NCBI GenBank assembly: GCA_964016885.1
Contig: OZ024743.1
Coordinates: 14,880,001-14,944,000, forward strand
Source of the DNA: Eledone cirrhosa
Taxonomy: Eukaryota
DNA: 64,000 nt
Direction of reading: 5' to 3'
Made by a program: the position numbers and the translations under genes. Positions 13,401 to 62,681 of the stretch are shown piece by piece. Below the pieces are notes generated by a model. That model was not told the DNA's origin and did not search any database. It saw only the letters and a program-made list of their open reading frames with translations. Numbering within the stretch: the stretch's first letter is position 1; every line of letters starts with the position of its first letter.

Positions 13401-14880
13401 TTGGATGTGCTTGTTGACACTGTCCGTATTTTCAGCAGTGATATATGTATGCAGTTTGGTATTGGTAAATGTGGAGTCATTGTGATGAAGAGGGGTAGGT
13501 TGAGCAGAAGTAACGGGATCCAGATACCAACAGGTGAGATGATAGAGGAAATTGACTCTGAGGAAGGATACAAGTATTTGGGCGTTCTGGAGGCTGATGG
13601 CATAAAGAACAAAGAAATGAAGGAATTGTTAAGAACTGAATACATTCGGAGAGTAAGGAGCGTATTGAAGTCACATCTGAACAGCAGAAATGCCATAAGC
13701 GCAGTAAATTCCCGAGCTGTGTCTATTATTAGGTACAGTGCGGGAATTCTGAGATGGAATGTTGCTGAACAGAAAGAAATGGATAGGAAGACTAGGAAGC
13801 TATTGACTATCTACAACATGTTCCACAAGAGGAGTGATGTCGATAGACTCTACCTAAGGAGATCTGAGGGTGGAAGATGTCTTATCAGCATAGAGGACTG
13901 TGTTCAGATGGAGAAAAACAACCTATACAAATACGTGACCTATAGTAAGGAGCCAATGCTCAGAGTTGTACTGAAGGAGGGGACAGTAGGCCAGGGGATG
14001 TCCAAGGAGGAAATAACATCAAGGAGGAAGAACAGCCTTAAGGGAAAACCCCTTCATAGTACCTTCTTTGAGAAAACTGAATTTAGAGATCCACAGACAT
14101 GGAACTGGTTGAGAAGAGGAGACCTCAAAAAGGCTACAGAAGGAATGCTAATGGCTGCGCAGGAGCAGGCCCTCAAAACGAAGTGGTTGAAGCACCATAT
14201 CTACAAGGAGGAGGCCAGCCCACTGTGCAGGATCTGTGGAGAGAGAGAGGAAGAGGAGACTGTGGCTCACATTGTGTCCGAGTGTAAACACCTAGCCCAG
14301 ACCCACTATAAGGGCTGGAGACACGATGTGATGGGCAGGGTGATCCACTGGCACCTGTGCAAAGTAAACAATCTACCACATTCTGAGAAATGGTATGAGC
14401 ATAGGCCAGAGGCGGTGATGGAGAACAATCAGGTGAAGGTGCTGTGGGATTTTAGGATACAGACGGACAAAAAACTGGAACACAATAGACCTGACCTGGT
14501 GGTTGTGGACAAAGAAAAAAGATCGTGCCTGATTGTGGATGTGGCCTGCCCGTTCGACACGAGAGTGCAAGAGAAGGAGAGGGAGAAAATTAACCGATAC
14601 CAGGACCTAAAGTGGGAGGTGAAAAGGATTTGGAACTGCCATGAAGTCAAAGTGATCCCGATTGTCATAGGCGCACTAGGGACGATCTCCAAAAGTTTCC
14701 AGGGATGGTTAAAGAAAATCGGCCCCTTCACGCTTTTTGGAACGCTTCAAAAGGCATGCTTGCTTGGAACAGCAAGAACCCTCCGATACGTCCTGAATAT
14801 CTGAGGCTGCAGGTAGTGGCTTGATATTCAATCCAACGGACTTTTCAGTTAACCAACATCAATGACTGAGATTCAAGGAA
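10448..14880 (+). mobile_element. Near full-length R4/Dong-clade RLE non-LTR retrotransposon
   Basis: Bounded by (TAA)n at both ends; single RT-CCHC-RLE reading frame; 5' boundary inferred from the taa run. Confidence 0.85.
11374..14804 (+). pseudogene. R4/Dong ORF (N-terminal domain, RT, CCHC, RLE) broken by ATG>ATA, one frameshift (~11880-11900) and one stop (12561-12563)
   Basis: WTKELN..MQCY..S.P..RGYRRRM; WKSPGPDG, YRPITCL, WIDYRKAFD, GIFQGDSLSP, LFMDDLK; CRICG..ETVAHIVSEC; RHD, RPD, DVACP. Confidence 0.92.
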
Positions 14881-27959: not shown

Positions 27960-29530
27960 CAGTGCCCCGCAAAAGTTTACAACACATTAGGAAAAATGCG
28001 GTTTTAGGTATTTTTAATAAAGTTAGGGTAATGAAAATTTAACTACCGATAGAACATATAATGAGGCATTTAATGATACAATCATAGTTTTAAAAAAATA
28101 ACAAGGAAATAACTCATGAAGAAAAATCAATATTTTTATAACGCAAAAGTTTACAACACATGTATTTAATCATCTCTTAATATTTCGTAGCGTAACCTTT
28201 GTTGCTAATTACAGCCTGTAGGGCGTTTGGAGTAGCCTCCTACAAACTTTTTGCATGTTTCTTGGCTAATATTTATCCATTCTTCACCCCAAATTTTCTT
28301 TAGTTCAGGGATATTTTGGGGTTTCCTTTTTTGAATTCTGCCCACAAATTTTCGATCGGGTTAAGATCTGGAGACTGACATGGTCATTTTAGAACATTTA
28401 TCCCATTCGTACTTAACCAAGATTGTGTTAGCTTTGCAGTATGCTTTGGATTGTTATCTTGTTGAAAAAACCAACCTGGCTTTAAGCTGAGAGAATGTGC
28501 ACTTTGATGTAAATTCCTTTGGAAAATACCTCTATAATAAGTGTCACCCATTCTTCCTTCTATTATTTCAATATTTCCTACTCCTGTGGCACTAAAACAA
28601 CCCCAGACCATGATTGATCCACCTCCAAATTTTACAGTTGGAATAGTATTCTTCAGCGAATATTCAGTACCTTTCTTTCTCCAGACTTTTGCCACAGCAT
28701 TTCGACCAAAATGTTCAATTTTTGTTTCGTCCGACCAAAATACATCTTCCCAAAATGACGCAGGTTTGATGAGATGCTCATTTGCAAAGTTTAATCGACG
28801 AAGAACGTGTTTCCTCGTAAGAAGTGGTGTTTTCCTTGGAGACATCGAGAATATATTATATCGACGAAGTGAACGACAAATTGTATCTGTGCTCACTTTT
28901 ACTCCACTTTCTTCTAGGTCATGCTGAAGATGTTTAAGAGTACACCGGGGTTCGTTGCCAACCTTTCTCGTCCATAACCGAGCTGCACGTTCCGTTATCT
29001 TTCTAGGACAACCAGAACTAATTAGAGGACAGATGGAATGATGAGATTTCCAGTGACGAATTATTGTACCAACTGAACTCAAAGGCACATTTAACTGACA
29101 AGATATCTTTCTATAACCAACACCATTTGTATGAAGGTCTACAATGCGTTTACAGAGGTCTTGATCAATCAGTATATTTTTCCCCATATTGTCCATGTTT
29201 ACAGGATGGTTGTCAGACAAATAATGATGTAATGTTTTTAATAGTCCTTAGACCTAATCTAGAACATTCTACTGAATTTTAAATCTGAAAATTTAAGAAT
29301 TTTCTGGAAAAAAAGCGATAAATATAAAATGTGTTGTAAACTTTTGCGTTATAAAAATATTGATTTTTCTTCATGTGTTATTTCCTTGTTATTTTTTTTT
29401 AAATATGATTGTATCAATAAATACCTCATTATATGTTCTATCAGTAGTTAAATTTTCATGACCCTAACTTTATTAAATATACCTAAAACTGCATCTTTCC
29501 TAATGTGTTGTAAACTTTTGCGGGGCACTG
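27960..29530 (-). mobile_element. Tc1-family DNA transposon, IR/DR type, ~200-bp TIRs, in a TA context
   Basis: Ends CAGTGCCCCGCAAAAGTTTACAACACA...TGTGTTGTAAACTTTTGCGGGGCACTG; internal DR cgcaaaagtttacaacaca repeated at ~28142 and ~29330. Confidence 0.95.
28177..29220 (-). pseudogene. Tc1 DD34E transposase with TGG>TGA stop at 28384 and a downstream indel
   Basis: paired-like HTH, GCPRK, WSDETK, VWGCF, QQDNNPKH, then *PCQSPDLNPIENLW and KGYATKY*. Confidence 0.92.
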
Positions 29531-29879: not shown

Positions 29880-31299
29880 TTTTTAATGTGTGTACATATA
29901 ATTGACTTCCCAGTCAACGCAAGAGACATACATATACATAAATATATATTGATGTACACTGTGGAGCGACATATATTATACTATACTTTATTTGTATAGT
30001 AATTCAAATTAATATCAAAGTTAAAATACATGCGACAGATAACACAGATAATGCAGGAGAATAGTTCAATAATCAGATCTAGTAGATAGTGTATGCGTTA
30101 GTCATACATGGAGCATGCAAATGTGTCTCATTTATATAAGAATATTGTGTGGCAAGGTATTGCATGTAATACAAGCACCTTAAGCGGGTAAGCAAGAGTA
30201 TTATGGTGGTTGCAGTGGGGGGCGGGGTATTTTTGTATAGATCAAATTAGTATGTGTGCAGAAGAAGAAAGTTATAGTTTTCACATCCACCACCATTTTC
30301 ACATCCAGAAAAAGGAAGTTATAGTTTTCACATTCATCACATATGTTAGGATGTATTCGTATTTAATGTTTGTTGCAGTAAAGGATTGTAACGTATTGAA
30401 GTTCAGTGTTATTTAATCCATATTTATAGAATAGGTTCTTTCGGCTGTGAGAATTTATAGCGGTTTAATATCCGGAAGTAGGTACGTAATTAAGGGGAGC
30501 TAATGCGTAAGGGGAGGTAACTATCTGATTCTCATAACTAAATTCATTGTTCTAACATACATTATATGGTGCCTCAATTGAGTCCCTTATATGAAAGGTT
30601 ATATATTTATATTTAATTTTAAATACAGTCTACTCTCTCATAATGTATTAAAGGTATCTATAGGAAGTTGTTTACTCCTTATTATATAGTGCTATAATTG
30701 AATTCCCACCCAAAGTGCTATATCTTTATATCAAATTCACTCTAAATACAGTCTACTCTCAAAACATATTAAAGGTCCAATTAGATTTTTGTTTACATAA
30801 CCTTAGGTAAGCTATGGAACAGCGTACTGCTGTTTGCATGATAACATTAGATACATCTCTTGAGTAAACAAATTCATCCCCCATATACAATGTCATTAAT
30901 CTATCCATGTAGTTATAAATGCATATATAATTCATATCTAATTCATTGTTCCATATTACATATAAGTTAGTCAAATCACTTATGTTAATAGATTAATCCT
31001 ATATATACCTATGTTGTTACTCTATACATTTAATTACAAGTGCTATATATAATTCATTGTTGTATCTAATATTTAAAGTTTATATAAACTATATTATATT
31101 TCAATCCCTATATAATTGTAAGTAATCAAAAGTAATTATATTAAAGGGTGGTGGTTATAGGGATATTTCTAGGTTCTAAATTTATAGATAGAATGATTTG
31201 TGTAGAGGAAAGGGTGGATTAGAGAGTTAGTGTAGTGGTGGAAGGCAAGCCCTTGAGGTGCTGTGCTAAAAGTGGTGATGAGTTCAAATCTGACATTGT

Positions 31300-33168
31300 T
31301 ATATACTGGGTTTAAATTTTGTCGGAAAGCGGTGTTGGCACGACGCAAACACTTCCGATTTTTTTTATTAAGGAGGTTAAGATTCGAAAAGATTATAGTA
31401 TGGGTCTCTAGTAGACATAGGTTACAGAATTTATTAGGTGGTTTATACGATGCAGCCCTTCCTACCCTTCCCATTGAAGAGTATATGATCTATTCCTAGT
31501 TTTCAGATAGTGTATGTAGCTAGATAGTGAAGTGGAGTTGACTAGAATGTGTTTTTTGAAATAATGGAGATGTGAGCTGTATCTCGTTTTGAAGCAGTTC
31601 GATGTAGAGCCTATATATGTTCCAGAAGAGTTGCTAGTGCTGACCGTGCATGAGTAAATGATGTCCTTGATTAAGCAGTTTTTACCCAAAGGGCAGGTTC
31701 TATTAGATCTACAGTTACATTTATTTTGGATGTTATCCTGTCGGTTATTATGTTGTGTAGAAGTCTGGTTGCTAGGTATTGCATTAAGGCTATGAGGGTA
31801 GACGTTCCTAATGCTATTGATTTCATTAGTGTTATTACTATTATTACTATTGATATCAGGGTTTGAAGTTATTATGTTGTTTTGAAAGTTTACCACCTGC
31901 TGTGTTTTAGTTTGTTGAAAGTAAGTATTAATCTTTCTTTTATTGCTACTAGCAATGCGGTATGCTATGTGTGGTAGAGTAGGAGATTTTAATGGTGTTT
32001 TTATTTATAAGGCTATGTTACTTGTGGCCAGATGGGAAGTTTTTTATCCAGGATTCAGAAGAAAGCCTTAGGTAGGTTGGTAGAGACGTTTAGTTTGAAA
32101 GGGGGGTTGAAAAATGTATTAGTTCTTCTTCTATTTTTGTTTTTTATATCTATTGAGGTGTTTCCGTTTACAGTATTTTGGTGTCTTCTCTGGTGCGAGT
32201 TACGTTTGATGCCACCGTTCGTTTTAGTGTGAGTGTGGTTATTACCCCTATTACTATTTTTCCTCATGGTCATATTGAGAGAAATGATGTTGAAACTATG
32301 TGTTTTTATAGGTAGGAACTCAATCTCATTATTATGGCCTGATTTAGCTAATGTCTGATTATAGTATTGGGAATTATTGCTAAATATGGTTTCGTTATTA
32401 GATAGATTAGAGATTCTATTGGATATTACTTTAGTGATAGAGTTTAATATTGATCTAGGGTGGTTAGACTTGGTATCTACATAAATTAGTTTTTCGTTAG
32501 GTTATGAAATGGTGTATATATTTTAGAGTCTAGGTAAAGGGTAGCATCAATGAAGTTAACGTTTTTAGTATTTTTGTCTATGGTGATACTTAAGTTATAG
32601 TTTGTGAACGTTTTATGTAATATTTTCCTAGTTCTTTCTATATTAAATTTGTTAAAGTCTATAAGATGTAGTACATCATCGCGGTATAAACCACCGTTGA
32701 GGTATGGTAGGTCCTTATGGATTTCATTTAGTAGGTATAGGCCCACCAAATCAGTGACCTGCGCTGTGTCACTAGATTCCATAGTTATGTCAAAGTTGTT
32801 ATGCGTATCCTTGTGGGTCCATAACTGATCTTCAAATGCAATTATGAATGTACGGGCCGGAAGTATGATATCAATCTGGGATTTAGTCAGGTTACTATTG
32901 TTCGTGGCCATAATTTGGGCCTTATTTAATAGGATAGGGGAAATAGAGGTGTAGTATGAATTGATATCAAACTGAATAATTTTTTTTATTTTTGTTCTCT
33001 TTAATATCCTTAAACCATCCCATAACTTCCTCTGTATTTCCCCACTGTTTAAGGTATATTTTGTGTTTAATTTGTGGGATGATTTTATCTAAAATGTTCT
33101 TACTGATAATGCCAATGTCAGATTTGGAAGAGGGCATTAGTCTTATCGAAGGGTTACTAATGGAATCT
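31300..33168 (-). pseudogene. PLE RT + GIY-YIG endonuclease, frameshifted
   Basis: KSDIGIISK.ILD, QFDI..YYTSI, FDITM, GGLYRDD, FFNPPF; linker CNCR-x4-CPL-x3-C; IIY...YIG, R, H; CNLC. Confidence 0.88.
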
Positions 33169-33984
33169 TCAATTATAGCACTATATAATAAGGAGTAAAC
33201 AACTTCCTATAGATACATTTAATACATTATGAGAGAGTAGACTGTATTTAAAATTAAATATAAATATATAACCTTTCATATAAGGGACTCAATTGAGGCA
33301 CCATGTGATGTATGTTAGAACAATGAATTTAGTTATGAGCATCAGATAGTTACTTCCCCTTCCGCATTAGCTCCCCTTAATTACATACCTACTTCCGGAT
33401 AATAACCCGCTATAAATTCTCACAGCCGAAAGAACCTATTCTATAAATATGGATTAACTAACACTGAGCTTCAATACGTTACACTCCTTTACTGCAACAA
33501 ACATTCAATACGAATACATCGTATCATATGTGATGAATGTGAAAATTATAACTTCCTTTTTCTGGATGTGAAAATGGTGGTGGATGTGAAAACTATAACT
33601 TTCTTCTTCTGCACACATACTAATTTGATCTATGCAAAAAATACCCCCCCCCCCCAATGCAACCACCATAATACTCTTGCTTACCCGCTTAAGGTGCTTG
33701 TATTACATGCAATACCTTGCCACACAATAATGAGACACATTTGCATGCTCCATGTATGACTAACGCATACACTATCTACTAGATCTGATTATTGACTTAT
33801 TCTTTTGCATTATCTGTGTTATCTGTCGCATGTATTTTATCTTTGATATTAATTTGAATTACTATACAAATATAGTATAGTATAATATATGTCGCTCCAC
33901 ACTTTACATCAATATATATATATATATGTATCTGTATGTCTCTTGCTTGACTGGGAAGTCAAGTATATGTACGAACATTAAAAA

Positions 33985-34033
33985 TTGCTCCGAAGACTCC
34001 AACCCCAGGTTTGGAAGAAACAGTTGTAAGTGA
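33985..34033 (+). ncRNA. Inverted copy of the pLTR hammerhead motif
   Basis: ttgct-CCGAAGA-cTCCAA..TTGGAa-GAAA-CAGTTG-TA|agtga. Confidence 0.55.
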
Positions 34034-34062
34034 ATAAATGTTTTGAACATAGCTTTGATTCT

Positions 34063-34132
<70 letters not shown>

Positions 34133-34203
34133 TAATAAAAGGAATCCCAACTTTGTCTGATTCACTCGTTTTATTTACAATCCTTTAAAATTTATAATGG
34201 TAT

Positions 34204-34444
34204 TAGAATGAAATAGTATGGTAGAAAAATTAAATGTTAAATGTTAACTGAACAAGTACTTCCATGCTTTCGCAATCTTCAGCTTCATATTGAATGGTGA
34301 CAGTCAAGTTTTCAATTTTCAACTGTGAAAATTGCAAACTTGACTGTCACCACACAAAATGAACCTGACGATTGCGAAAGCATGAAAGTACTTGTTCAAT
34401 TAACACTTAACATTTAATATTCTACCATACTATCTAATCATCTA
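34204..34444. repeat. Fold-back palindrome, ~118-bp arms, 4-nt loop, hammerhead motif on each arm
   Basis: 34204-34321 is the imperfect reverse complement of 34326-34444. Confidence 0.9.
34360..34398 (+). ncRNA. Minimal type I hammerhead ribozyme motif
   Basis: tgaac-CTGACGA-tTGCgaaaGCAt-GAAA-GTAC-TT|gttca: 5-bp stem I, GAAA-tetraloop stem II, palindromic stem III loop. Confidence 0.7.
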
Positions 34445-34472
34445 TGCACAATCATACACACCCGTGTATATT

Positions 34473-34558
<86 letters not shown>

Positions 34559-34563
34559 ATATA

Positions 34564-34599
<36 letters not shown>

Positions 34600-34602
<3 letters not shown>

Positions 34603-34925
34603 ATGTTGAATAAATGGAAACTATAGTTATAAAACCATATTTATTTTATTATATATATTTCAAGGGAACCAAGTGACATTGGTACGCTTTCATCATATAA
34701 AATAGAAAGTTTGTTTTATAAATAGAGACATACCCATTTTAATCAAACCTATCGTTTGGATATTCACTGGATAGTTGTGTGTAGTCATGGGTATATCTCT
34801 ATTTATAAAACAAACTTTGTATTTTATCTGATGAAAGCGTACAAATGTTATCTTGGTACCCTTGAAATATATATAATTAAATAAATATGGTTTTATAAAT
34901 ATCGTTTCCATTTATTTAATATCAT
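34600..34925. repeat. Inverted repeat, ~138-bp arms, 49-bp spacer, hammerhead motif on each arm
   Basis: 34600-34737 vs 34787-34925. Confidence 0.9.
34821..34882 (+). ncRNA. Minimal type I hammerhead ribozyme motif
   Basis: attttat-CTGATGA-AAGcGTAC..GTACcCTT-GAAA-TATATA-TA|attaaat; the other arm restores stem I (ataaaat) but has C3>A. Confidence 0.7.
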
Positions 34926-35017
34926 GGAATATGTACTCCAGTAAACTGTTGAGTGCTCTAAATCAGTTATAAACATTTATATTTGTGGGACTTCCAACAA
35001 ATTAAATACCCCTTCTA

Positions 35018-35097
<80 letters not shown>

Positions 35098-35100
<3 letters not shown>

Positions 35101-35692
35101 TTGGTGCTACTGGTAACATGTATCCCAGTACAACCTGTCTCATGGTCGGGTCGTTGGCGACTAAACTTCAACCCCACCAAGGTTTCTTGGTAAGGAGGGT
35201 GACACTGGACATCCTGCAGGACTAAAAACAAAACCTGTCAAAGGGTAAAGGACCTCTTAAGAGTCAATGGCCATCCAAAATCACCGAGAGAGATGACCCC
35301 TTAGCCTTTGTCAAGGCAGAATTCTAGGAGAAGGACAACTCTGATTCAACACCTGCAACCCTGATGGTATCCAATGATGTTGACTTATTCTTCTTTTTGG
35401 TAAATATTATCTTAGTTAAGATAGTGGGACTGGCTTTGTGCAGTGCCTTTGCTCACTATAAAAGCTTCACGGCACAGGCATCGCTTTATATCTGGAGATC
35501 ACTCTGCACTTGTCGTCACATGGTACCATGGGCCCAGCACTATGTGTCAATAATTGTCACAAGTGTAGTGTTTGTACCAGAGTTTTCAAGTCGCTGGCTG
35601 GACTAAAAAGACACTCTCGTTCAGCGCATCGGTAGGGGCTCTCCTACATTGATATGAAGTAGTGGCCGTACTCGACAACGAGTTGGTAGCCA

Positions 35693-35695
<3 letters not shown>
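35098..35695 (+). mobile_element. Possible 5' UTR fragment of an RTE-clade LINE
   Basis: ctaggagaaggacaactctgattcaac resembles RTE 5' UTR motifs as I recall them; more GC-rich block between (TA)n runs. Confidence 0.35.
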
Positions 35696-35763
<68 letters not shown>

Positions 35764-36345
35764 TTATGCACACCTTCGTCGCTGACGCCTCCCAGAACCA
35801 TCAGATATGCAGGAGGAAACGCTTTGTGCTTGACTGTGGTTTTCTTTCGCATTTCTACCTATACAACTGTCACTCCATCATTGGACGCTTAGGTTTTACA
35901 CATTACCATCTAAAAAGCATTCCAAGCTCTAACATGCTTTACCTTGCACAAATGGCACATTGCGTGGATCAACGGTTCCATTTTGTGTTAGCAGACACAG
36001 TTTCGTCCCTCCGCATCTCACATAACTTTTATCGACGGTCTTCAGACTCAACTCCTCCAAAAGTGTGCCTCCAAAATCTTTCACAACTAATCTTTTTACT
36101 TTTCAATAAGTGTAATTTTATTTCATTTTCTTTTATTTTTTGGGGGGATTAAATTGAATTCCACGAGTTTAAACGGAAGCACAATTTTTATATGATACAT
36201 TTTAGATCTGTATTTCATGTTCTTTTTATTTGCATGTATATCAAATAATATAGGACTGACTATGTTGTACTTCATTATGCAAACTGAATAAAATATCAAG
36301 ATTAGAATGTATACGATGTACTAGCTACCTTCATCACATCAACAA

Positions 36346-36379
<34 letters not shown>

Positions 36380-36571
36380 GTATATATATATATATGTATG
36401 TGTGTGTGTTGTATATATATATACATATATATAATTATTAGTTTGGGAATGTTTTACTCTCAAACGTGTCATACTGAAAACATGTCAATTGTTTATGCTT
36501 AATTTGGATCAGTAGCATTCGTAAATCTACGTGTGTATTAACGTTTTGAATCCTTCATGCTACATTTCCAG

Positions 36572-36606
36572 AATCCGAATGAGCATACAATTGGCGAATT
36601 GATCAG
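36572..36606 (+). CDS. Candidate small host exon (NPNEHTIGELI)
   Basis: tttccag| acceptor, ag|gtaatt donor, one open frame. Confidence 0.35.
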
Positions 36607-36808
36607 GTAATTAGCAATTTTCGTAACATATCATGGGAGTCGTAGGAAATGTTGAACGCCCGACATGAATGTTCTAAATAGTTGATGCATGGCAGTTATA
36701 CTGATTGGTTTGACGTATGCTGTAATTCGGTGTGTGATAAATGTTTGGTTTAGATTGTGATATTAGTAGATTTCTATCTACATACATAGTTACATCCACA
36801 CATAAACG

Positions 36809-36846
<38 letters not shown>

Positions 36847-37282
36847 TGTATACGTGTGTGTAGGGTGTATAAATTTAATTTTCGCTATCCCCAACACAAT
36901 AAACCATTCATTGACCCGTTTCTATCCTACAGAAAAAGAGCGCCATCCTTCACAAATATATTATATGTGGTCTTTATAATGAAATATGACAGCCCTGATA
37001 ATCAAACACCTAGATAGTAGCAGAGTTTATTTGATTCATTTATTTGCCGTTATGCATAAATAATGTCTATTTTCGGATTCGGTTTTTGGTTAAAGTGATT
37101 CAAGGAAATAGATTGATTTATCCTCAGAAGAGTTAATTACATAAATAAACATCGATGAATAGTGTACTATACTCTATCTCATATAGATAGGGGATCACTG
37201 GGTATTTATTTGAATGAAAGACATGATGTATCTTTACGTGTGAATAGAAATAATTAATGTTCATCATTATAATCTCTTGCAG

Positions 37283-37319
37283 GCAGTTGGAACTTTGTGG
37301 ATCTCATAAGAAGTCATGA
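37283..37319 (+). CDS. Candidate terminal host exon (RQLELCGSHKKS*)
   Basis: tctcttgcag| acceptor; joins the phase-2 end of 36572-36606 to read to a TGA. Confidence 0.3.
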
Positions 37320-39562
37320 AGCAAAGTCATTTTTGCACGCTAATAAAGAGAAATCATCGAAAGATAACATCTAAATAGCTTTCATATAAAATGTTTTGCT
37401 TCGCTTGTTTAAAACTGATTGCGTTTATCGCACTTACAGTTGATGCGATGCGATACAAGCACTAAACATGATTGACGGTTAGATAGAATGAATGCCTTAA
37501 GATACATTTTTCTTATCTCAAAAGAAAAAAAATATATTTCATATCGATTTCTTTTATATCCAAATTTATTTCGTATAATCGTTTTTAGTTTTAGTTTTTC
37601 TAAATTGATTTCACTTGAAGATATAACGGAAATCAATCAGGAAAGACCGTATTGGTGATTAGAACAAGGAAAAAAATCAATACTACTACGAAAAGTAACA
37701 AAATAAGGTTTAATGAAAATAACGATTTCTTGTATTTATCACTCTTGAAAGGATATTATAAACGGTGGACTTTTATGCAGAATCCATTATGTAGAAACCC
37801 GGGCACAGAAGGCAAAATACATGCCATGAGGAGACGATACAGAATTGTAAAGACAATGTACAATATACACGAAGCCATGATCATTTTGCTACTGAAAACA
37901 AATGTTGTATTTACTCTACGTTGAAAAGAGTACACATGGATACACAGTGAAGGTACATTCATCTGAAATATTCTTAAATAACAGTTTCTAAATAAACTTA
38001 AAAAGAACATTTATTTCTCTCGTCTCATCCTCCCCTCTGGAATGAAATTCAATATGGTGAGTTTGTCAATACAATCTTAAAATCTGTGGTTTTGCTGCAC
38101 CCACGATGCCTGTATGATCATCAGTAGCCATTTTATACATATTCCACTACGCGGAGGATATTGACTGCAGGTTGAGCCATTGGTTCGTAGAATACATTTG
38201 GTTTACAAGAATGGAATGAATCGACATTTCAGTCTGTTCAAACACATTCTGTCACAAATAGAAGAGCTGGAGGGCAATAAATAATGCTGGTGTATTATTT
38301 TGAAATTGCTATACGATATTCGGGATTCAATTTGCTCCGAACCCATTTATGGATGAAATACATCAATGCTTGGCCCTTCTCTTGGTTCCCGTTCGAATCT
38401 ACCTGGAGCTATGTTTCCAAAATTATTACATGAATATTAATCTTATCTTGATGTCTGCTGCTCATAAAACAGAACTGCACGGATTTTTCAGTACTTGCAA
38501 GCCTAGATATGTTAACATTTTCTACAACCTGATATCTCATCAATGTAGTACCTATCATATGCATATTCGTGGTACACGATCGCATCTGAGTGTCGGCCTC
38601 TGCGTAATTTTTGACAGACAACTCACGTTTGTGTTCGGGTGAGATGCACTTTTACGTCTCGGTGTATGTTTCAATGGGTTAAGAACAAATATGTACACAC
38701 GTTTTCGTTATTATATCTGTTCAGGTTTATCCTTCGACTAATCTTGATGTGCATTTCTAGTTTATTTTTGTTCTTTTTGAGGTGGGTGTGCGTATTGGTT
38801 GGTAAGGTTTGTTGTTGTACTTGTTTGTATTCACCTTCTTTCTGATTTCTTTGCGTATTTAGTTATTGTTATTTTTTCATATGACAAGCTTTGATACTAG
38901 AGGTGATGGAGAGATGTGATTGGATGTTTCCTCAATGTCTCAATTGTGTTTAGTGTTTTCACTGTTGCTGGCAGAATGTCACTGAGTATCGAACTGGGGG
39001 ATCTATCATTGCTATTTTCATTGATTTGCATTACAAGTGATGGTTTCTCTTAGGTAAAAGTGCTGTTTGTTCGGCTCTATTATAGAAGGATATTCTTATT
39101 GAATATAAATTTAGAAGAAAACGGATTAATGATTCACTATGAACTTAGATGTGATATTATTAAGGAGTATGGGGTAGAAGAGTTTTATGTAACATTTTTA
39201 TTTCATATGGTCTGTGATATATTACTACTGCTAATAATTCTGCCTTGGTTAAATTATTGTCTAAAGCTATTGGTAAGGAAGGAGACAGTCATTAAATAGG
39301 TTAAAAATACCCTAACTTATTTCAAAAACCTACTGTCTAATGCAATTTTGGTTAAGAAATGACGTGAAGGATATTGTGAGAATATCTATGATTATATATA
39401 TGCTTATTCAGAATGGGCTTGAAGTTAAGCAAAAACAGACAAAGGAACTGCCGCACATTGAAGGAATCCATATTGCAATTGGAACATCTTTTGTCTATCG
39501 AACAAAATTGTCGGATCGATCACAATTAATCTCAGACTACAGTATAATTATATCAGCATCAC

Positions 39563-40835: not shown

Positions 40836-40878
<43 letters not shown>

Positions 40879-41302
40879 GAGTATAGTTCACTTGAAGCAT
40901 TGTGTAATGAGGTATAAACGTTTGTTTATGTATAATAAAGCCAAAACAATGCAGGTATGGACATAGAATAAAGAATGCAAATGCAAAAGATATTGTTGAC
41001 AATTAGTCTTTTACCTTAGATTTATTTAAATGTCCTTAATTTTCGAGATAATATCTCTTCTTCAGAGCGAAGTAATGTTGTCAACCAGTGTTCTAAATAG
41101 CTTGCCAAGTCATGACTTGGTAAGCTATTTAGAACACTGGTTGACACCTTTATTTCGCTCTGAAGAAGAGATATTATTTCGAAAACTAAGGACATTTAAA
41201 TAAATCTAAGGTAACAGACTAATTGTCAACAATATCTTTCATTTGCATTCTTTATTCTATGTCCATACTTGCATTGTTTTGGCTTATTATACATTTATAA
41301 AC

Positions 41303-41364
<62 letters not shown>

Positions 41365-41421: not shown

Positions 41422-41645
41422 GTCTGTTTGTTTACAAACAAACAAACCGAGCATTATAATAAAGTTCGGTAAACCGATACGTGCATATATATATCTGTGC
41501 ATGTATATATATATATATACATACTACATATATGTATGTACGTATACATACATACATACTTACATTTAAGTAAGTGCCGTACTAAGAGTGAGAAATGAAA
41601 TTTCGTTACATTCTATTCTCTCTATATATACATATAAATATCTAT

Positions 41646-41742
<97 letters not shown>

Positions 41743-41965
41743 TATATTTATATGTATATATATATAGAATAGAATGAAACGAAATTTCATTTCTCACTCT
41801 TAGTACGGCACTTACTTAATTGTAAGTATGTATGTACGTATACGTACATACATATATGTAGTAAGTATATATATACATACATGCACACATATATATATGC
41901 ACGTATCGGTTTACCGAACATTTATTATAATGCTCGGTTTGTTTGTTTGTAAACAAACAAACAGG
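41422..41965. repeat. Inverted repeat, ~200-bp arms, centred on (TA)n
   Basis: 41422-41618 vs 41767-41965; part of the right arm also occurs at 27735-27800. Confidence 0.9.
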
Positions 41966-46777: not shown

Positions 46778-49700
46778 GGCGACCTACGTAGTAAATCGTA
46801 TAATCGTGAGCTCCGCAAAGGTTTGTTATTTTCAGTTGTTCAAAATTGCTATTCATGGAAAATGTTATTGTTAATTGTATATAAGTGCACATACATTGTT
46901 ATCTGAAAAGGACACCCAAAAAGATTGGGGCTTTGAGCCCAAAATTTAAACTTTTATAATTATCAAACAAAAGAATTTTTTTGAAACACCATGGCTGACT
47001 CAGAGTCACTCCTTTCTCACAAACTAACACCTCACACCGACACCACCTTTGTAAATATTACTACGTTTGCCAACACTAAAAAAAATATAAGCAGTAGCAA
47101 TATTTTAAATTTGTCTCAGGCAGACATTCATTTTCCGCCATTACCAATGACTGTAGGTGTTAAATCCGCCACCACCACCACCACCACAACCGCGACAACC
47201 ACCACCCCCACCACTACCGCGAAAACAGAAACAAAAGAAAAAAATAAATTAACTCGTGATATCGAAATGAATTCAACCAAAATGAACTCTTCCACACCGA
47301 ACACCACTGACGCCACCACCACCACAACTGAAACTAAAATTAATAATAACAAAAATAACGATAACAACAACAGCAACAATGACATTAAGAAAACCACTCT
47401 GAGTTTTGCCAGAGTAGCAAAATAGTACGAAGCATTTCAGGTAACTCAGGAGGAATTAGAAGAAGCCAAATAAATGGTAAAGAAAGATGGGTACATTGTC
47501 AGCCCCCCCCCCACCACACACATCTAATAAAATGGAGCATCGACGCCTATGCACCGTGTCTTATCGAACAATCAATATAAAATTGCGGCGAGTGGAACGG
47601 GCATCCGAGTCCCAAATCAAAAAATCTTTGGGACATGTGTGGGCAAAAAAAAACACATCAGACGTGGGCAGAAGTATGGAACCGTGGACGTGTTCTTTGA
47701 AACACCACAGGAGGCTAGACAACACTCCATGGCCCCATTAAGAAGTGACGACTTCACACTCGTCCCAATCTATTGTGGCCAGAGACACGTAAAGATCAGG
47801 GTGACCCACGTTCCACCGGCCATCGAAATTCCATGGCTAATAGCAGCCGTCCTCGCCGGCATCGTGGCCAACACCAAGATAATCGAAATAGCGAAAGAAA
47901 TTCAGGAGAACTGGTCCGGATCTGGGATGGAGCTCCTGATCCAAGCGGACCAAAAAAGCACTGAGGAGATCCCAGAGGTAATAGACCTCATTGACGGCAG
48001 CCGCCTCACCGAAATTGTCGAGAGCAGAAGGCCTAGGTGTGTCGTTTGTGGTGAAGGAACCCATCTAAGGCCTTTCTGCCCCCAGGGTAAAAGGTTGAGG
48101 CCACCTCTCCTACCCACCCAGTGACTCAACCATCAACACCACCAGCAGCAGAGTTGGCAACAACAACTGTAGCAGCAACAACAGAAGCAACTATAACAGC
48201 AACAACCCCAGCAACAGTAGCAAAACCAACACCACCACCACACAACGCGCCAGAACTAGCAGCAGCGCCTACACCATCCACCACGCCACAGCCAAAACTA
48301 ACGCCCGTGGAGGATTTTCAACTCGCCGGCCTATCACAACTGGAGACAGATTGGGACGACGAGGAGTGGGAAACGGTATCAGCAAAAAAGAAAAAAAGAA
48401 ACCAAAAAAAGAAAAACATTCTCTTCCTTCCACCTCCAAAAACAAAATACAGAGGGAAACAAATAAACTATCAGACAAAAAAGTTAGGACAGATATGCCC
48501 CATCCACACCAGCATCACCAACCCAATCACCACAAACACCAACACCATCACCATCATTAACCCCAACACCACCATCACCTACACCACAAAAGTCACCAAA
48601 AAGCGAAACAGAAACAAACCCACAACAAACACAAACAAAACAAAACAACCAAAACGATACACACTACACAGCATTAAATTTGAAAAACAACCAATTATAC
48701 ACTACATCCAACACAACACCAGCATCACAGAAAAAGACTACACAGCAACCCAAAAGTTCACACCACCTCCACACATACAAATCACTCGCATCACACAGAA
48801 AACGTACATGACACTAAAACAAAAATTCCCCAAAGACATCGGAGACTTCCGACAAGCACTCTCCAGGAGGATTTATAAGGACATCCTTCCGGAGGAGGCC
48901 ACAAGCAGTGAAAAGGATGTAGAAACCGTCCTTCCTCTATGAGAAGTAAGGTAAGTGGTCTTTCCCATCTTTTCCACTCCGTTTCAACATGACCTCACTC
49001 AGAATAGGCAGCATAAAAGCGCGTGGCTTGGGGTCGACATGGAAGCAGAGCCACCTGCTCAACGACCTCAGGTCACTAAACATAGATGTAGTGGCCATCA
49101 GCGAGACCAGAATCTCCGAAGCACGGGCCTTCGCACCGATCTTCGGTGGCTACAATGTGTACGCATCTCCCAAAAGTCCGGGATCGGGGGGAGGAATTGC
49201 TGTGCTTTTTCGGAGAGGTTTGGATCTCGCAATACGGGCCATCTTCCTGGACCCAGAAGGTAAGTTGGTGGTGCTGGACGTGACCAGCGGAGACGGGCAA
49301 GCTTTCAGGCTACTGGTCGTCTATGCCCCGACAGGAGCAGGGCGGCCTGATTTCATCCGGCGTCTGGAGACCTTTCTTGGAACGTCCCGCTCTTTAGTGT
49401 TAGTGGGCGAGTGGAACGGGATCTTAGATGCACGTAGGGACTGTGTGGGATTAGCGGATAGGGGAGGAGGATGCAAGAGTCTCACCAACCAGCTCAGGTG
49501 TTTTGAACTGTCTGACAGGTACCGATTGGATTTCCCGAATGTGCCAACATAGACTTCGACAAATCGCATAGGGTCATCCAGATCATATATAGATAGAGTA
49601 TTTTGTAGGGAAATAGATAGGTCTAGCATAGGCGGTCCACAATTCAAGATAGTCAGCTACACGGACCACAAATTCGTGATCTGTGTGCTTGACTTAGATA

Positions 49701-52658
49701 GGCTTCATAGACGAGGACCCGGCTACTGGAAGCTAAACGTGTCCTTACCAGCGCGAAAGACCTACAGAGACCGGATTAGCGAACTAGTTAAGCGGGCGTT
49801 GACGGGGTCCATTGTCAACAAGAGGTGGTGGTTTGCTCTGAAAAGAGCAATTAGAATAGAGTCCATTAGGTTTAGTAAGGCTTTAGCAATAGAGAAAAAT
49901 AGAGCAGAGGGAGAATTAGTTAGAAAATTAGACGAGGCGCTCAGCAAAGGCATCGCGATCGACGTACTTGCGGCGAAATTGGCCCTTGAACAATTGTTCA
50001 ATGCAAAGCACGAAGGCAGCGTTCTCAGAGCTAGGGTGCGTGCTCTCAGACACGAGGCGACGAAAGCCGTTTAATGGGCCAAAGTGGCGGAGGCGCGTCG
50101 TGGCAACAGAGCCACGATCCGGGCTTTGGTCGACCACGACGGGCGCATGCTACTCGATCCCGGGCAAATGTGTGAAGCTTTTCAGCGACACTTCGCACAG
50201 CTGTTCGTGGGCAGCAGCGGGCCGGATCAAGGGATGGACTTTAGTGTCTACCTCGACGGACTGCCGCGGCTCTCGGCCACAGAGCCGGAGTGTTGCGAAA
50301 AGCCGATAACAGCCGCTGAAGTACGGGAGGCAATGACTGGCTGCACAAGGGGTAAATCGCCTGGTTTGGATGGTCTGCCCTATGAACTTTACGTACAGAT
50401 GCCAGACTTGTTCGGAGGCCTCTTGGCGGACGTCTACTGCAACTGGCAACAGAACGGGAGAATTCCCAGCTCTGTGAGCCGAGGAGCTGTGGCGCTGCTG
50501 AGAAAGGATCCGAACAAAGTGGATAACATAGATAATTTCAGGCCCATAACTCTGCTAAACACAGAGTTCAAGATTTTGGCCAAGGTGATAGCAAAGAGGT
50601 TAGCGCTTGTAGTTGGCGGTCTGGTGGGAGAGGCGCAGACATGCGTCATTCTCGACAGATCCAGCCCATACAACCTCCACTTCATGCGATACATCGTAGA
50701 GAGGGTAGCTAGGGAACCTGGCACGGGTTGGTCCTTGATCAATTTAGATCAGTCTAAAGCTTTCGATAGGGTCCACCATCGTTACATAGCGGCAGTCGTG
50801 AGGGCGGCTGGCTTTGGGCCCGTCTTCAGAGGCTGGATCGCAGCCATGCACAGCGACATCTGCTCTGTGGTGAGAGTGAATGGTCACCTTTTGGAACCGT
50901 TCAATATCATGCACTTGGTCCGCCAAGGATGTCCCCTCTCGTTCCTCTTGTACATATTGACTCTCGAGCCATTACTGCACAAACTGGAAACGGTGAGGTG
51001 GTCCCGGGCAAACTAGGATGCGGAAGATCCGTGTCAGCATATTCGGACGATGTCACCGTAGTGGTGTCGAACGCCAAACACATCGAGGCGATCGGCACTA
51101 CACTAAGAGAATACGAAGCGGTGACAGGAGCAATGATAAACCATGAAAAGTCAGTTAGCCTGCAGCTCGGCACCTGGAGAGGCAGGTCCATATGGTCCAA
51201 CAGCGTCGTCGGGCGCTGGACGGACGGACCGGTTAAATTGCTAGGGGTCTGGTTCGGTCCGGACTTCCAGACGGACAAAACCTGGGACGAGGTGACGAGC
51301 AGGATGGCTTCTCTCACCCAGAATTTGGCGGAGAGCAAGCTATCCCTGAAAGGTCGAGCGGAGGTGGCTAACGCGTACATCGCGTCCGTCATCTACTACC
51401 GCCTGTCCGTCGTACCTTGTCCTAAGCCCCGCCTGACTGCGCTGGAGTGTTTGCTCTTTCGCTTTTTGTGGAAGGGACGCGCTCCGATGGTCAGGCGGTC
51501 CATCTGCTGTCAACACTCGCTACGTGGAGCGCTGGGCATGCCGTCGATGATGATGCGCAGACACGCCCTCAGGCTACGACATCTCCACCTATTCCTCGAC
51601 GGTGATCAGGTGTGGTCGCCGTTTGCTAGACACGTCTTTCCCCATCTCGTCTCCTTGACGGAGCTGCAGTCCTGGGTCAAGCGAAGACCGAGAGGGAGCG
51701 CTTGGAGACTGGAATGTCTTCAGGCGCTTGCAGCCCTCGACCAATCGGGCAATGTGATCGGTAGAAACTCCACCTTGGCGTTCTATAGGGGATTAGTGGA
51801 GGAGAAGAGAGACGACGTACTTGGAGAAACTCTAGGCGTCGACGAAAATCAACTAGCCAATCTCTTCGGAAGGACTTTCGGGCCGGGGTCTATGGACAAC
51901 TTCCAGAAATCCCTGGCCTGGCAGTGCTACCGAGGAGCTTTGCCAGTTCAGGATTAACTTCACAGGCATGGAGGTGCCGTCAGCCGGGCATGTCCGAGAT
52001 GCGTGCAGGGAGACGAAACCGTCCTGCACGCACTCGTCCAGTGTCCGAGCATTGCTGACTTGTGGGTTTATGTCGAACACCTGCTGTCGCGTGTAGGACG
52101 GATCCAGCTATCAGCTGAGTCCATCGTGAGGATTGCCCCGCCCTTTTCCTTTAGCCCGGAAAGGCAGGCAGTTTTTATCTGTCTGGTGGCCATGGCGAAA
52201 GAGCTAGTATGGTGGACACGTTTGAAAGGGCTGAAGACGAGCACTTACCTCTTCGGTGATGCCCTGATTAACTTTTTCAAATTTCATTTGAAAAGGAAAA
52301 TCAGAGTAGAAAGGGAAGTGCTCTCTTCCCAGCATTTTGTTGAAAGATGGGTGAGAGATGCAAGAATGGCCCGAGTGAATGGGCCTACTCTGAGTATGTG
52401 TCTGTAAATTGAAGGTGTAAAACTGGGAGAGGGCACTTGTCCTGGTGGTCAGGGTCACTGTGTCTTTTTAACGGGCTTTCTCCACTAATGTCCTTCGGAT
52501 TCTCCCCCCTATTGGGGAATTTTTTCATTGTTCTATTACTACATCCTCTGTTTCTTGTTTTTTACACGCAGAAATACCCATTTGTACCGCCCTGTATTGT
52601 CCTGTACTGTCCTTAATGTCTATTTTATGTAAAGCCTTGTGGTTAATAAAGAAAGCTA
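46778..52658 (+). mobile_element. Full-length but degenerate Tx1-like LINE with a different 5' UTR/ORF1 type
   Basis: Broken ORF1 46991-48942 (CVVCGEGTHLRPFC) and broken ORF2 48989-52407; (TTA)n at both ends. Confidence 0.92.
48989..52407 (+). pseudogene. Tx1-like ORF2 (APE-RT) with several stops and frameshifts
   Basis: Pieces 48989-49552, 49676-50074, 50084-51016, 50929-51957, 52003-52407 closely match 4951-8370; YSDD motif. Confidence 0.93.
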
Positions 52659-52756: not shown

Positions 52757-52841
52757 TTTTTTAATTTTATATATATATATAGCTGGGCGTCAGAGAAACG
52801 ATTGTGATATGTCTAATACATTTTAATTCTCCGTTTCCGAT

Positions 52842-52878
<37 letters not shown>

Positions 52879-52881
<3 letters not shown>

Positions 52882-54930
52882 ATCGGAAACGGAGAATTAA
52901 AATGTATTAGACATATCACAATCGTTTCTCTGACGCCCAGCTCGAGGCCCGATCGATGCAATTATCGAAACTGACTCTAAAATTGGTAGATCCTCAGATA
53001 CGTCTCGATTCTTCGGAGCAAAGTTTCAAAATGCCCAGTTACTCCCGCGGCCTTCGCTTGTTGTTGTCTGTCGATGAGTGGTCAAGAATTGTACACGTCA
53101 TCGGTATTTTTAACCACTCTTGGTCGTTATTTATCTGGTTCCTTTCATATGCCACCTGCCAATCAAAGTTGTTTCTTATATTGGAATTACTACTGTAGGG
53201 GTCAGGGTTTGTATGATTGAAATGCTTGCGCCCACTCGCAACCTTCCCGGTCGGTAGGCGGCCGCACCCATGTCCATGTTTCCCGCAGGTGTGATACATA
53301 TGGGTACGTGATACATATGGCACCCACAACAATCACATATAAACCCGCAACTGTATTATATGTGACAGTCACAGTGAATATTAAATGTACAGCGAATATT
53401 TAGAAAGAGTCTTTAAAAAATTGAAAAACATAAAAAAAAAAACGTTCAGAAAAACACACCTTCAAAATACCTTAAAAACATACACATTAAAAAAATGACA
53501 TAAATGTCATTTTTAAAAAAATGTTCCTTTGAAAGGGTTTTTTTTAATGTGTATGTTTTTAAGGTATTTTGAAGGTGTGTTATTCTGAACGTTTTTTTTA
53601 TTATGTTTTTCAAAATGCTTCAAAGAGCCTTTCAAAAAAGTTATTTCAAAAGTATTTTTGATAAATATACATACGCATATATACACACACACACTGCTCA
53701 GGAAAGCATATATACTTAAGAAGCTGAACATATATACAGATGAAAAACCGGAAAATCTGCAGATACATATGCATACACCTACACAGACATGTTCATATAT
53801 ATACATACACACAGACATGCATACACATGCATGTATATAGATACATATTCATGCATACACATACATACATGTACCCACGCATGGGCATGCATATGGGCAT
53901 TCTTATACATCTCAAAAAGCACATACTTGATGAATACCTACATATCCACAAACACACGCAACTGTGCACATAGCGCATAAAATATTATATGAGAAATTAT
54001 TCCTGAGGTGTGGAACGTAACCCATTCATGGGGCATTATAAGCATGAAAGTGCATGCACAATATGCACAAATGCAATAGCTACGTAGCAGCCACGTACTA
54101 ATGACAGCTAACATGGAGGGCACGTATATGAATGCGTGTACTTACATAAAATAAAATAAAATAAAATAAAATAAAATAAAATAAAATAAAATACTTGAAA
54201 AAGGAATATATACATGAAAAAGATGCAAAGGAGGTATCTGTTCACGCCACCCGGATATTATTGGGATGTGCATAAAGTTGCATAAAATACTTAAAGAATG
54301 TGTTGCATAGAGTTATATAAGATACAGAAGGAGTGACGATCCAAGGGACTGGGTAAGAACCTGCGCATCAACCATGCACATGAGACAGATTTCATGACAG
54401 GTGGACACAGGGGACCGTGTAGGTATACACAAACAAGTTATATATATTGTGAATGTCTAGAATATCCTTTTCATAATAGTATATATGAAATGTACATGAA
54501 ATGGATGCATAAATGTAATATATCGGGAATGTGTAGAATATGCCTTTCATAACAGTATATATGAAATGTTCATGGAATGAATGTATAAGTGGAATATACC
54601 AGCGGATTGTGCTGTAGGCATGTATATAGCAATGACTGGCAAAGTTAAAATTAACTACACCATTAACCTTAATCCAACATCAAGTCCAACATTAAAGTTG
54701 CAAATTAAACATCAAGAATCGAAAATAAAAAAATAAAAAATAAAAACTTCAAATTCAGATTCAAAACCACAGATGAGGTTGTAAACGAGATTTATCTGAA
54801 GCTCGTTAGATTTCAGAGTCACTTTCGATCATTGCATCAATCGTGCCTCGAGCTGGTCGCCAGAGAAACAATAGTAATATGTTTAATACATTTTAATTCG
54901 TCGCACCACTGATTCTCCATTTCTTATGTG
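52879..54930. mobile_element. Non-autonomous TIR element, ~2 kb, with ~130-150-bp imperfect TIRs in a TA context
   Basis: 52879-53010 (cccatcggaaacggagaattaaaatg...ctcgagg...) is the diverged reverse complement of ~54785-54930. Confidence 0.65.
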
Positions 54931-55056: not shown

Positions 55057-55649
55057 AATTATAAAGTTGACGGCCGTATGTATGTAACAAACTATTTGCC
55101 AAACGGCTGGACCAACAAGCGCCAACTTTGCACCATAGATGTAACTTTTTCCATTAAGTAAGTGAGGGTATTTTTATATTCTAACTTTCGTTAAAAGATT
55201 AAAGAAATTTTATCGTTTATTTAAATATTCACTGCTTTAACATTTTCAAATGTCACCACTTCCGGTTATACGACATTCCCTTCTCTTTCTTAGTCTGTCT
55301 TTTTAGATAGATACATAGCTATAACGTCGCGCCCTTATAATATCTCTGTATGTCTGCTGTATGCATTATATACATAGCTATAACGTCGCATGTTTATAAT
55401 ATCTGTCTGTCTTCACGAACCAAAGTATCGTATTCCTGTTTCCCTTCGGTTGCAACGTTTTCGAAATATTTATTTCTGCGTTCACAGATTGATTTTTTAA
55501 TTTCAGAAGTTCCCGTTAAGGGTGAAAGCAGTGATTTTTGTTTCAACTTTAATCTGTTATATTAATATATATTTATATATATTAAAATAACAGATTAAAA
55601 TTTAAGCAAAGAATCGCTGCTTTCACTCTTAACGGGATCTTCTGAAACT

Positions 55650-56606
55650 ATGGCGTACAATGCAGGCGGACGGCATCCCAGTGAAGATACTTCGTCCCAT
55701 ACTCGGGCTCGAGTGAGGGTCTATGGCGGGGAGACGGAGTCGTTCGATGTTGGGGCCAGTGTTCGGCAGGGGTGTGCGCTGATTTACAAGGTGCTCTCGA
55801 AAGGGTGTACACAGCAGCCGCCGCTGTTGGACTACGAATCAATGCTGCCAAAGTCATGACGTCACTGGTCTCGCCTGATGCCTGGCAGACGATATCTCTC
55901 GAGTGCGTGGAACTGGAGGATGAGGAGTCCTTCGTTTACCTGGGCTCGACAATGGTTCCAATGGGAGAGGGTGCAGGGGAGGTCAAACGTCGCATAGGTG
56001 CTGCCAGATCCGCTTTGGGTGCCTCCAACGGTGTCTGTCGGACAGAAGAGAGATCACATTGGCAACCAAAGGGCGAATCTACCAGGCCGTCGTTCGAACT
56101 ATCCTCCTCTATGACTGTGAAACATGGCCTATGAGAGTAGTCGATCAACGAGGGCTGGAGGTCTTCGACAATGACTGTCTCCGCCGCATTCTTCGCTGCC
56201 AACGCCTTGATCGGGTATCTACCACCAGTTTTCATCTTCGCCTGAATATTCGACACCTTCCGTCAGTGCTTCTGCAACGGCGCTTGAGATGGTTTGGTCA
56301 CGTAGCCCGACTCCCTGAGGGTGAGCTGATCCGCGATGTTCTCCTCCCACCTCCACTCCCTAACTGGCGCAAGCGCGTTGGCGAGAAGCTGAAGACCTGG
56401 GCAACGACGATCAAGGAGGAGCTCTCCGAACTCTCTCAGGTCCGCAGGTGGTCGGCCTGGACCGATGGAACCGTGACTGGCTCGCTAGCTCCAGTGACCT
56501 AGCCCGGGAGCGTCGTGCGTGGGCTGCCATAGTTCGGGATGCGTCAGGACAAGGGAAGAAGCCAGCTCAACCCGTCCAGAGTGAATGTCGACTCAAGTAC
56601 AACTAA

Positions 56607-56646: not shown

Positions 56647-56840
56647 CGTTTCTGAATTTGTTTAGCAAGATTCTTTATCTGAAAACGTGTGTTGAAGCCG
56701 ATATTGTTATACTTTGGGAGGGTCATGTTGCCAATAAGAAACACACGTACCATGCTTTCACTTCAATTTACTATAATAAATTGAAGTGAAAGCAACTGGT
56801 GCGTGTGTTTCTTATTGGCAACATGACTCTCTCAAAGTAT

Positions 56841-56900
<60 letters not shown>

Positions 56901-59200: not shown

Positions 59201-60350
59201 TTGACACACTCTTTACTTCTCTTTTCGAACGTGATAGCCTACTACAGTTCCGGTTCCGCAGTAATGATCCTAGAGCCAGAATATATACATGTTGAATTGT
59301 TATCATACGTTCTTGATAATATTAGTGATTGCCTAAATATATATATGTGCGCATGTGACCAGGTGTGTATTTGTTAGCTTTTGGGTTTATTTGAAATTAT
59401 GCGGATATGTATGTGGAATATTTTGTATTGTTTTGTATATGTCTCTTGGTACAAGCGTGGTGTCAAGTATTGATTATTTTTTCAAACAATGTTACGTATT
59501 ATCTAAACACAAAACATTCCTTCACTACCTAATATATATGAATCGTTTAGATTGTGCTGTGCAAGCTATGCTGAACTATTTATGACAGGATTTCTTTTAA
59601 TTGAGATATAAATTCATTTTGTGGAGGTAGCTGAATGTATTTTCTGTATAGCTTTATTTTTCGTGGCACCAATATATGAGTAGTGAAGGATAAATATTAA
59701 TAATGAATTTTCTATTACATTTGTTGGGTGATCTAACGGAAGGGAGCAAGGTTTATATGTATTAGAAATCTTTGATATAGTTGAACCCCATAATATCATC
59801 ACTCATTTTGTATTCATGGTAGGCATAATTATCGCTTGGAAACATTTAACATTCAGGAGAGTGCAAGCTGTCTCTAATGTTTAGTTAGGTACAATCACAC
59901 ATGTTTTTAAAATTATATTTTTGTACGTTTTGATGTCATTTTCATGAAATGTATATCACATCAATTTTGCTTATACTTCTTGCAGTACATTGAGGCATAG
60001 ATCTGGTTTTCCATATCATAAATTATACTATAATGTAACGTGTCGTACTAAAATTCGATGTGAGTATCTATAGTTAAACAATTGAAAATATTTACATCGA
60101 TATTTAGAAATGTATTACGCCTTTAATTTAATAAAATGATTTATACTGCTAACATTCAATCACGTCAAACATTGGTAATAAATAAAGTAGCGATGTCAGA
60201 AAAGTGGAAATGATCATTTTATAAAGGAAATATATTTTCATATGTGTAAATTCCATTCATCACCAAAGAAATGATGAATAACAATCGTAGGTTCAAACAG
60301 ATATTGTACGCAAATGGTAATTACTTCGGAGTCTGCGTATGCGTGTGAAA

Positions 60351-62675: not shown

Positions 62676-62681
<6 letters not shown>

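Follow-up and report, generated by a model that had tools for sequence, protein, structure and literature searches.

Two hammerhead-bearing palindromes of Eledone cirrhosa read as head-to-head, 5'-truncated insertions of PLE pLTR ends

Two neighbouring palindromes of the Eledone cirrhosa genome, here called A and B, are very probably independent insertions of 5'-truncated pseudo-LTRs (pLTRs), arranged head to head, into one (TA)n tract, each likely holding a capped leader that was copied twice from two internal starts. That both derive from Penelope-like elements (PLEs) is close to certain. Their layout is already in print, and A and B add two family members to an insertion pattern known before. 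What we add is that the arms of many copies stop at a single 5' base, often with an extra G, which likely marks the start of a capped RNA. The palindromes lie in a 64-kb stretch of DNA (the window: assembly GCA_964016885.1, contig OZ024743.1, positions 14,880,001-14,944,000, forward strand, from a genome of 3.0 Gb), and all coordinates below without a contig name are positions in this window.

An earlier note, made from the letters of the window alone, had described two adjacent palindromes at 34204-34444 and 34600-34925 that were unrelated in sequence and free of open reading frames. Both inverted repeats are present, with arms about 88-90% complementary; the best local score between A and B, 21-23, is at chance level, and no frame of at least 130 aa overlaps either one. 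The spans proved too short, and comparison with other copies places A at 34128-34473 and B at 34598-35019. The left arm of A (34128..34326, minus strand) matches the 3' end of a full-length copy, L122, at 88.6% and runs from a putative transcription start, placed by a pile-up of boundaries 73 nt before the predicted hammerhead cut, to the non-tail end, where its outermost few bases grade into (TA)n. The right arm (34326..34431, plus strand) begins 68 nt before the cut and has then lost about 75-80 nt relative to other copies. The left arm of B (34598..34775, minus strand) matches the copy L124 at 89.4% and runs to its non-tail end from a putative start 128 nt before the cut, a position at which other copies show a pile-up and an extra G. 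It is followed by about 9 nt of filler that matches neither arm (34776..34784) and by the right arm (34785..34927, plus strand), which begins 91 nt before the cut and matches L124 at 94.5%.

Comparison with other copies also shows that each palindrome has a tail at a single end. That of A (34432..34473, plus strand) is AC-rich, about 37-40 nt long, and ends in a 6-bp stem-loop. That of B (34928..35019, plus strand) is about 92 nt long and starts with a bulged hairpin before giving way to (TA)n. In B and the copies L031-L055 this hairpin (34936-34950) has a 3-5 nt loop that varies among copies, with flanks about 95% alike. The insertions are separated by a (TA)n target tract (34474..34597), and (TA)n borders both of them on both sides, masking any target-site duplication.

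On the plus strand of both right arms lies the layout that had been claimed for them, a minimal type I hammerhead whose helix III is palindromic. In A (34360..34398) the core is CTGACGA (34365-34371) with GAAA at 34384-34387 and a palindromic GTAC followed by TT; stem I is TGAAC/GTTCA, stem II consists of a U.U and 3 bp under a GAAA loop, and the cut is predicted after 34393. Two features of A, the U.U at the foot of its 3-bp stem II and U17, are unfavourable by hammerhead rules. In B (34820..34883) the core is CTGATGA (34828-34834) with GAAA at 34864-34867 and a palindromic TATATA followed by TA; 7 of 8 stem I pairs form, stem II is long, and the cut is predicted after 34875. Core, stems I and II and palindromic helix III are present in these right arms and in the family majority. 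Copies on the minus strand of the left arms do exist, but the description of them as slightly mutated understates their state: both are damaged in the core, and neither has the complete layout. In A (34249..34287) GGAA stands for GAAA and the closing pair of stem I is broken; in B (34642..34704) C3 is changed to A, giving ATGATGA for CTGATGA.

The hammerhead descriptor matches A, with a chance rate of 0.01 per 64 kb in 100 local-composition shuffles, and misses B here owing to a stem I mismatch private to this copy. In a 14-sequence alignment of B, 94.8% of stem cells pair; only one pair shows a two-sided change, and 82 of 500 shuffles score as high, the copies being too alike. The hammerhead span came out more conserved (0.99 against 0.96), a difference that was discarded as evidence, since the sample was partly chosen by likeness there and some outer columns were misaligned. 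An Rfam scan of 30000-39000 gave no hammerhead at E<=1 and returned only hairpin-like miRNA models below their cut-offs. The usual G10.1-C11.1 pair is absent, being U.U in A and A-U in B; in minimal hammerheads this pair is highly conserved, not invariant (PMC4209133).

Other parts of the window hold related and unrelated features. A third hammerhead-bearing head-to-head palindrome, of a different family, lies in (TA)n at 40860-41310 with cores at 41065 (minus) and 41160 (plus). An inverted repeat at 60350-60757 has hammerhead-like cores facing inward (60360 plus, 60747 minus), opposite to the usual PLE layout, and a single hammerhead-like motif with a long stem II is found at 36000-36050 on the minus strand. 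Short palindromes with no recognised hammerhead core occur at 41422-41962, 52781-52942 (perfect around a (TA)n centre), 53399-53637, 55498-55650, 56701-56848 and 62677-62843. The intervals 4951-10103, 11859-14804, 28384-29247 and 46985-52407 contain what we take, from translation alone, to be other mobile elements: APE-type LINEs (one near-intact frame of 1204 aa), pieces of restriction-like-endonuclease LINEs and a piece of a Tc1-like transposase.

One of the two origins offered in the earlier note was that of extremely truncated PLE insertions, and this one is borne out by parents with RT and GIY-YIG that carry the same ends, and by centres that vary in position. Parent A is a 4.2-kb unit with the same ends on both flanks and a 775-aa frame that contains GxKF, DKG and YLDD motifs, a CX4CxxC linker and, at the C terminus, GIY-YIG; the RVT_1 match of this frame (E 2.9e-6) is below the cut-off and the GIY-YIG match (E 3.3e-6) above it. 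The tail sequence continues in parent A toward the first ORF. Two full-length copies stand head to head in L122 (G000:C1:21871200-21881100), joined exactly at the predicted hammerhead cut. This locus sits in a 9.5-kb palindrome that includes its flanks and is possibly a product of assembly or repair, so that the identification of parent A rests on L116 too. For B, a GIY-YIG frame with a CxCX5C linker lies upstream of the end in 7 separate insertions, the RT being present in broken pieces.

Judged by their motifs, the A end fits the pLTR end of a Neptune/Nematis-type PLE and the B end is that of a Hydra-type PLE. As far as the available part of PMC8557442 describes these groups, Neptune/Nematis elements share with A the GxKF, DKG and YLDD motifs, a CX2-5CxxC linker and a C-terminal EN, and A differs in an extra upstream frame of about 450 aa. 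The Hydra clade shares with B the CxCX5C linker, the CxxC and CxH around the E/N of EN, the (TA)n target and the hammerhead. Neither RWK nor DKT was seen in the truncated B copies examined, none of which extends to the N-terminal part. Disrupted stretches of PLE coding sequence whose motifs are Hydra-like (CxCX5C; RWR and DKT) are also found in the window at 31462-33088 (minus strand) and 63415-63999, and no DNA match of these stretches to parent A or B was found.

Exact 31-mers identify 5,758 A arms and 895 B arms genome-wide. When hits are taken in chromosome order, minus and plus arms are spaced from 100 bp to 8.4 kb apart. Best BLAST hits had suggested a family of fixed length, an impression that came from best-hit bias, as samples in chromosome order show variable centres. 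Thus the recurrence check that had been proposed to tell fixed-length, MITE-like palindromes from snap-back truncation with variable centres speaks against the former and for truncation. The A sample contains 69 loci, of which 65 were classed (three long insertions and the L122 centre were excluded): a head-to-head partner adjoins in 34, there is none in 29, and 2 run off the locus. Among 66 B loci an inverted partner adjoins in 29 and is absent from 29, 6 run off and 2 have no focal arm. The two commonest A centres have 815 exact matches. A functional pairing of A with B was considered and rejected, since 7 of the 69 A loci have B pieces within about 1.5 kb and 1 of the 66 B loci has A pieces nearby; in our judgement, their adjacency here is what the common (TA)n target would give.

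The position of the tails bears on how the arms were joined. Of 54 centre-matched A copies, 53 were classed by tail: 23 have it on the arm that bears the loop and 21 on the opposite arm, none has it on both, and it went undetected in 9. Among 46 B pairs, 33 have the tail on the arm that is shorter at its 5' end and 9 on the longer arm; 2 have it on one of two equal arms, 1 on both arms and 1 on neither; the tail is missing from 50 of 61 B arms that reach the cap site. The earlier note had the cDNA snap back on itself. In plain snap-back, the arm made second cannot acquire a tail that is absent from the first, and the tail is often on the arm copied second (21/44 in A, 33/42 in B), so the simple form is insufficient. 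A fuller form, in which one cDNA extends from the tail site as far as the 5' end of the RNA and then folds over to serve as its own template, and in which an endonuclease or repair afterwards trims the tail from one arm, keeps the same PLE origin and differs in the joining step. We consider it a serious though unlikely rival. It could explain the two commonest A centres as a one-base cDNA end folding in two registers, the L122 centre as folding at the hammerhead cut through 2 nt of microhomology, and five private variants that are mirrored in both arms among 39 copies; self-priming has also been proposed for PLE palindromes (PMC3846280). However, it requires that extra trimming whenever the second-made arm has the tail, and a precise non-tail end in addition, while long unpaired spacers and filler junctions are common and non-tail ends are found on single-arm insertions too.

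The sides on which tails occur, together with the agreement of arms within copies, lead us to lean slightly toward two primings on one RNA, one per cut DNA end. In 39 of the 53 A copies, over 115 columns, arms share 1.85 variants per copy, compared with 0.45 between copies. The five mirrored variants, and the flanks of L011 and L122, which are mirrored as well, point to additional effects of fold-back copying, later conversion or faulty assembly, and identity of the arms is therefore no proof by itself of one RNA. In L128, a copy of an A subfamily, the diagnostic variants are in one arm only, the second arm being incomplete.

The 5' ends of the arms are far from evenly spread. Counting from the predicted cut, 47 of 97 A arm ends fall within -76..-71, and genome-wide the base just ahead of A(-73) is not that of the parent in 1,747 A arms, with 1,580 arms reading through. 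A TATA box (TATAAAAG or TATATAAG) begins 31 nt upstream of A(-73) in two diverged A subfamilies. The pile-up in B is weaker, with 16 of 87 ends within -132..-124 and, at A(-128), 156 arms that stop and 307 that read through; its upstream element, CATAAG at -31, is merely TATA-like. A G precedes A(-128) in 55 of the first 100 B rows counted by hand, and in 35 of 61 junctions fetched from the first 60 places (33 of 58 once 3 read-through point changes are removed). Five of these Gs abut pure (TA)n where the parent has C, so neither target nor parent supplies them. At other B junctions, a noisy control that includes sequence variants which are not junctions, G is found in 38 of 182, or 38 of 145 that are non-C. 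The extra G is weaker in A (358 of 1,747), and of 30 such junctions inspected 12 are explained by the partner arm, 3 lie on (TA)n, 1 is a read-through and 14 are of other kinds. In three read-through copies (L291, L323, L331) a G replaces the base just before the putative start; these may be point changes, or a capped cDNA end joined to an upstream copy, which would rebuild the pLTR.

In L1, an additional G at the junctions of full-length insertions is the sign of a copied cap (PMC11702581). From the TATA at -31, the single-base stop and the extra G we infer that both boundaries, A(-73) and A(-128), are probably capped transcription starts. Such a pile-up could also build up where RT stalls on longer RNAs or where microhomology creates a hot spot in them, an explanation that short self-complementarity at the A site, which favours joining, and the modest G excess in A would suit. 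We find it improbable in view of the single-base sharpness despite varied partners, pure (TA)n among them, the TATA at -31 kept in two subfamilies, and a B extra G that comes from neither parent nor target. The D. virilis Penelope promoter is internal, in the pLTR, and TATA-less (PMC2377424), which counts against a TATA start. Among the papers that our literature search listed, none reports a start-site pile-up or cap G in PLEs.

A smaller pile-up occurs near the predicted cut of A. In a hand count of the first 100 of 659 A rows with a changed base nearby, about 15 start at +1 (if 1-2 T of microhomology are allowed for), 3 at +2, 9 at +3, 2 at +4 and 10 at +5, none begin at -3 and at most 4, all ambiguous, at -4; the remainder are mostly point changes. 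L122 is likewise joined at +1. These junctions hint at occasional cleavage, and stalling at stem I could explain part of the +1 pile-up instead.

The other origin offered in the earlier note was an inverted hairpin retrozyme, that is, a palindrome which itself acts as a non-autonomous unit and passes through transcription, cleavage and re-insertion. This would agree with a centre common to many copies (the 815 matches in A), with variants mirrored in both arms, and with the proposal that retrozymes are non-autonomous PLE derivatives (bioRxiv 10.64898/2026.07.22.740005). We nevertheless regard it as very improbable. One centre occurs in different subfamilies, the tail may be on either arm, and no inherited majority difference specific to one arm was found. 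A young subfamily, with the diagnostic variants of the full-length L116 and L122, has three centre types and both tail sides, which indicates that the palindrome was made repeatedly. Forming the hammerhead in a transcript that spans the palindrome would cost 52 (A) or 71 (B) kcal/mol, against 3-7 for a single arm. With one ribozyme per strand a same-strand dimer cannot form and release of a unit is impossible; the hammerheads are passengers in A and B. No direct tandem units with two same-strand hammerheads were encountered, the direct pairs seen being full PLE units or separate insertions. Even less can be said for a MITE or a foldback DNA transposon whose hammerhead-like motifs arose by chance, which short, ORF-less, high-copy inverted repeats flanked by TA might suggest: the parent elements refute it, the ends are asymmetric (the tail), the centres vary, the arms run on into PLE 3' UTR and GIY-YIG coding sequence, the descriptor hits by chance at 0.01 per window, and a fixed length with symmetric TIRs and no RT link was not found.

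The reading as truncated PLE insertions agrees well with known systems, as far as the available parts of the cited works describe them. Dual minimal hammerheads on opposite strands, 100-700 bp apart and tied to truncated PLEs, were described by Cervera and de la Pena in 2014 (PMC4209133); these metazoan ribozymes share with A and B the short palindromic helix III and the opposite-strand pairs, and A differs in its U.U at 10.1-11.1, 3-bp stem II and U17, and B in its A-U. Inverted pLTRs, tails, junction palindromes and TATA- or initiator-like motifs have also been described (PMC3846280, PMC8557442). Insertions of EN+ PLEs (PMC3846280; PMC8557442 Fig. 2) have the head-to-head inverted pLTR, the single-end tail and the microsatellite target of A and B. 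Our families likewise combine a parent with RT and C-terminal GIY-YIG (a full frame in A, broken pieces in B), variable 5' truncation with an inverted head-to-head copy, and a tail at a single end (both tails in 0/53 for A and 1/46 for B). Most copies here differ in that they lack coding sequence and end at one base, and the B tail is about 92 nt and not 30-40.

Poseidon_Ac (Frangieh 2024, PMC11167929) resembles them in its two 3' ends separated by the tail, in an AC-rich stem-loop like that at the end of the A tail, and in its AT-rich target; both strands were cut and extended in vitro, and the available part of that report found no reads at the hammerhead cut. Unlike there, 5' ends and the cap G are counted here, and the ORF of parent A starts behind the tail and not inside the hammerhead. 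Non-LTR retrozymes are, as A and B are, ORF-less, related to PLE pLTRs and equipped with a type I hammerhead, but by definition they are tandem repeats in direct orientation, with two ribozymes on the same strand (bioRxiv 10.64898/2026.07.22.740005), whereas A and B are inverted with one per strand. L1 shares the extra G at full-length 5' junctions, the second priming by the other DNA end and joining by microhomology; its twin priming gives adjacent, nearly non-overlapping halves, whereas both arms of A and B copy the same stretch (PMC11702581). The available part of PMC13282606 mentions neither palindromes nor hammerheads.

The parents, variable centres, one-sided tail, (TA)n target, single-base 5' pile-up and extra G are observations, and the scheme that we build on them departs from observation at the pLTR promoter, which would produce a capped RNA starting at the pile-up base. 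RT would then initiate 200-270 nt inside this RNA, at a non-tail or a tail site, as for Poseidon_Ac (PMC11167929). Internal initiation on a pLTR-promoted RNA would give a short, strong-stop-like cDNA of 200-270 nt, the size of the arms. Each cut target end would prime one such cDNA, and microhomology or filler would join the two cDNA 3' ends. The source of longer copies would be read-through RNAs, with priming at the downstream pLTR. Whether a strong-stop-like copy of the capped leader, made from two RT starts, one per cut DNA end, with copying through the cap and the cDNAs joined head to head, is the commonest PLE retrotransposition product in this genome is a matter on which we are evenly divided.

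As objects, A and B are ordinary PLE debris, and their value is as a record of transposition. If the leader model is true, thousands of such stubs record the transcription start, both RT starts and a rare ribozyme cut at single-base resolution, and the origin of inverted pLTRs and tails would be explained. The junction counts predict to the exact base where the RNA starts, where the two primings occur and where the cut falls. They bear on how the inverted pseudo-LTR and the one-sided tail of PLEs are formed and on hammerhead cutting in vivo, subjects that are treated in PMC2377424, PMC3846280 and PMC11167929 as far as these are available.
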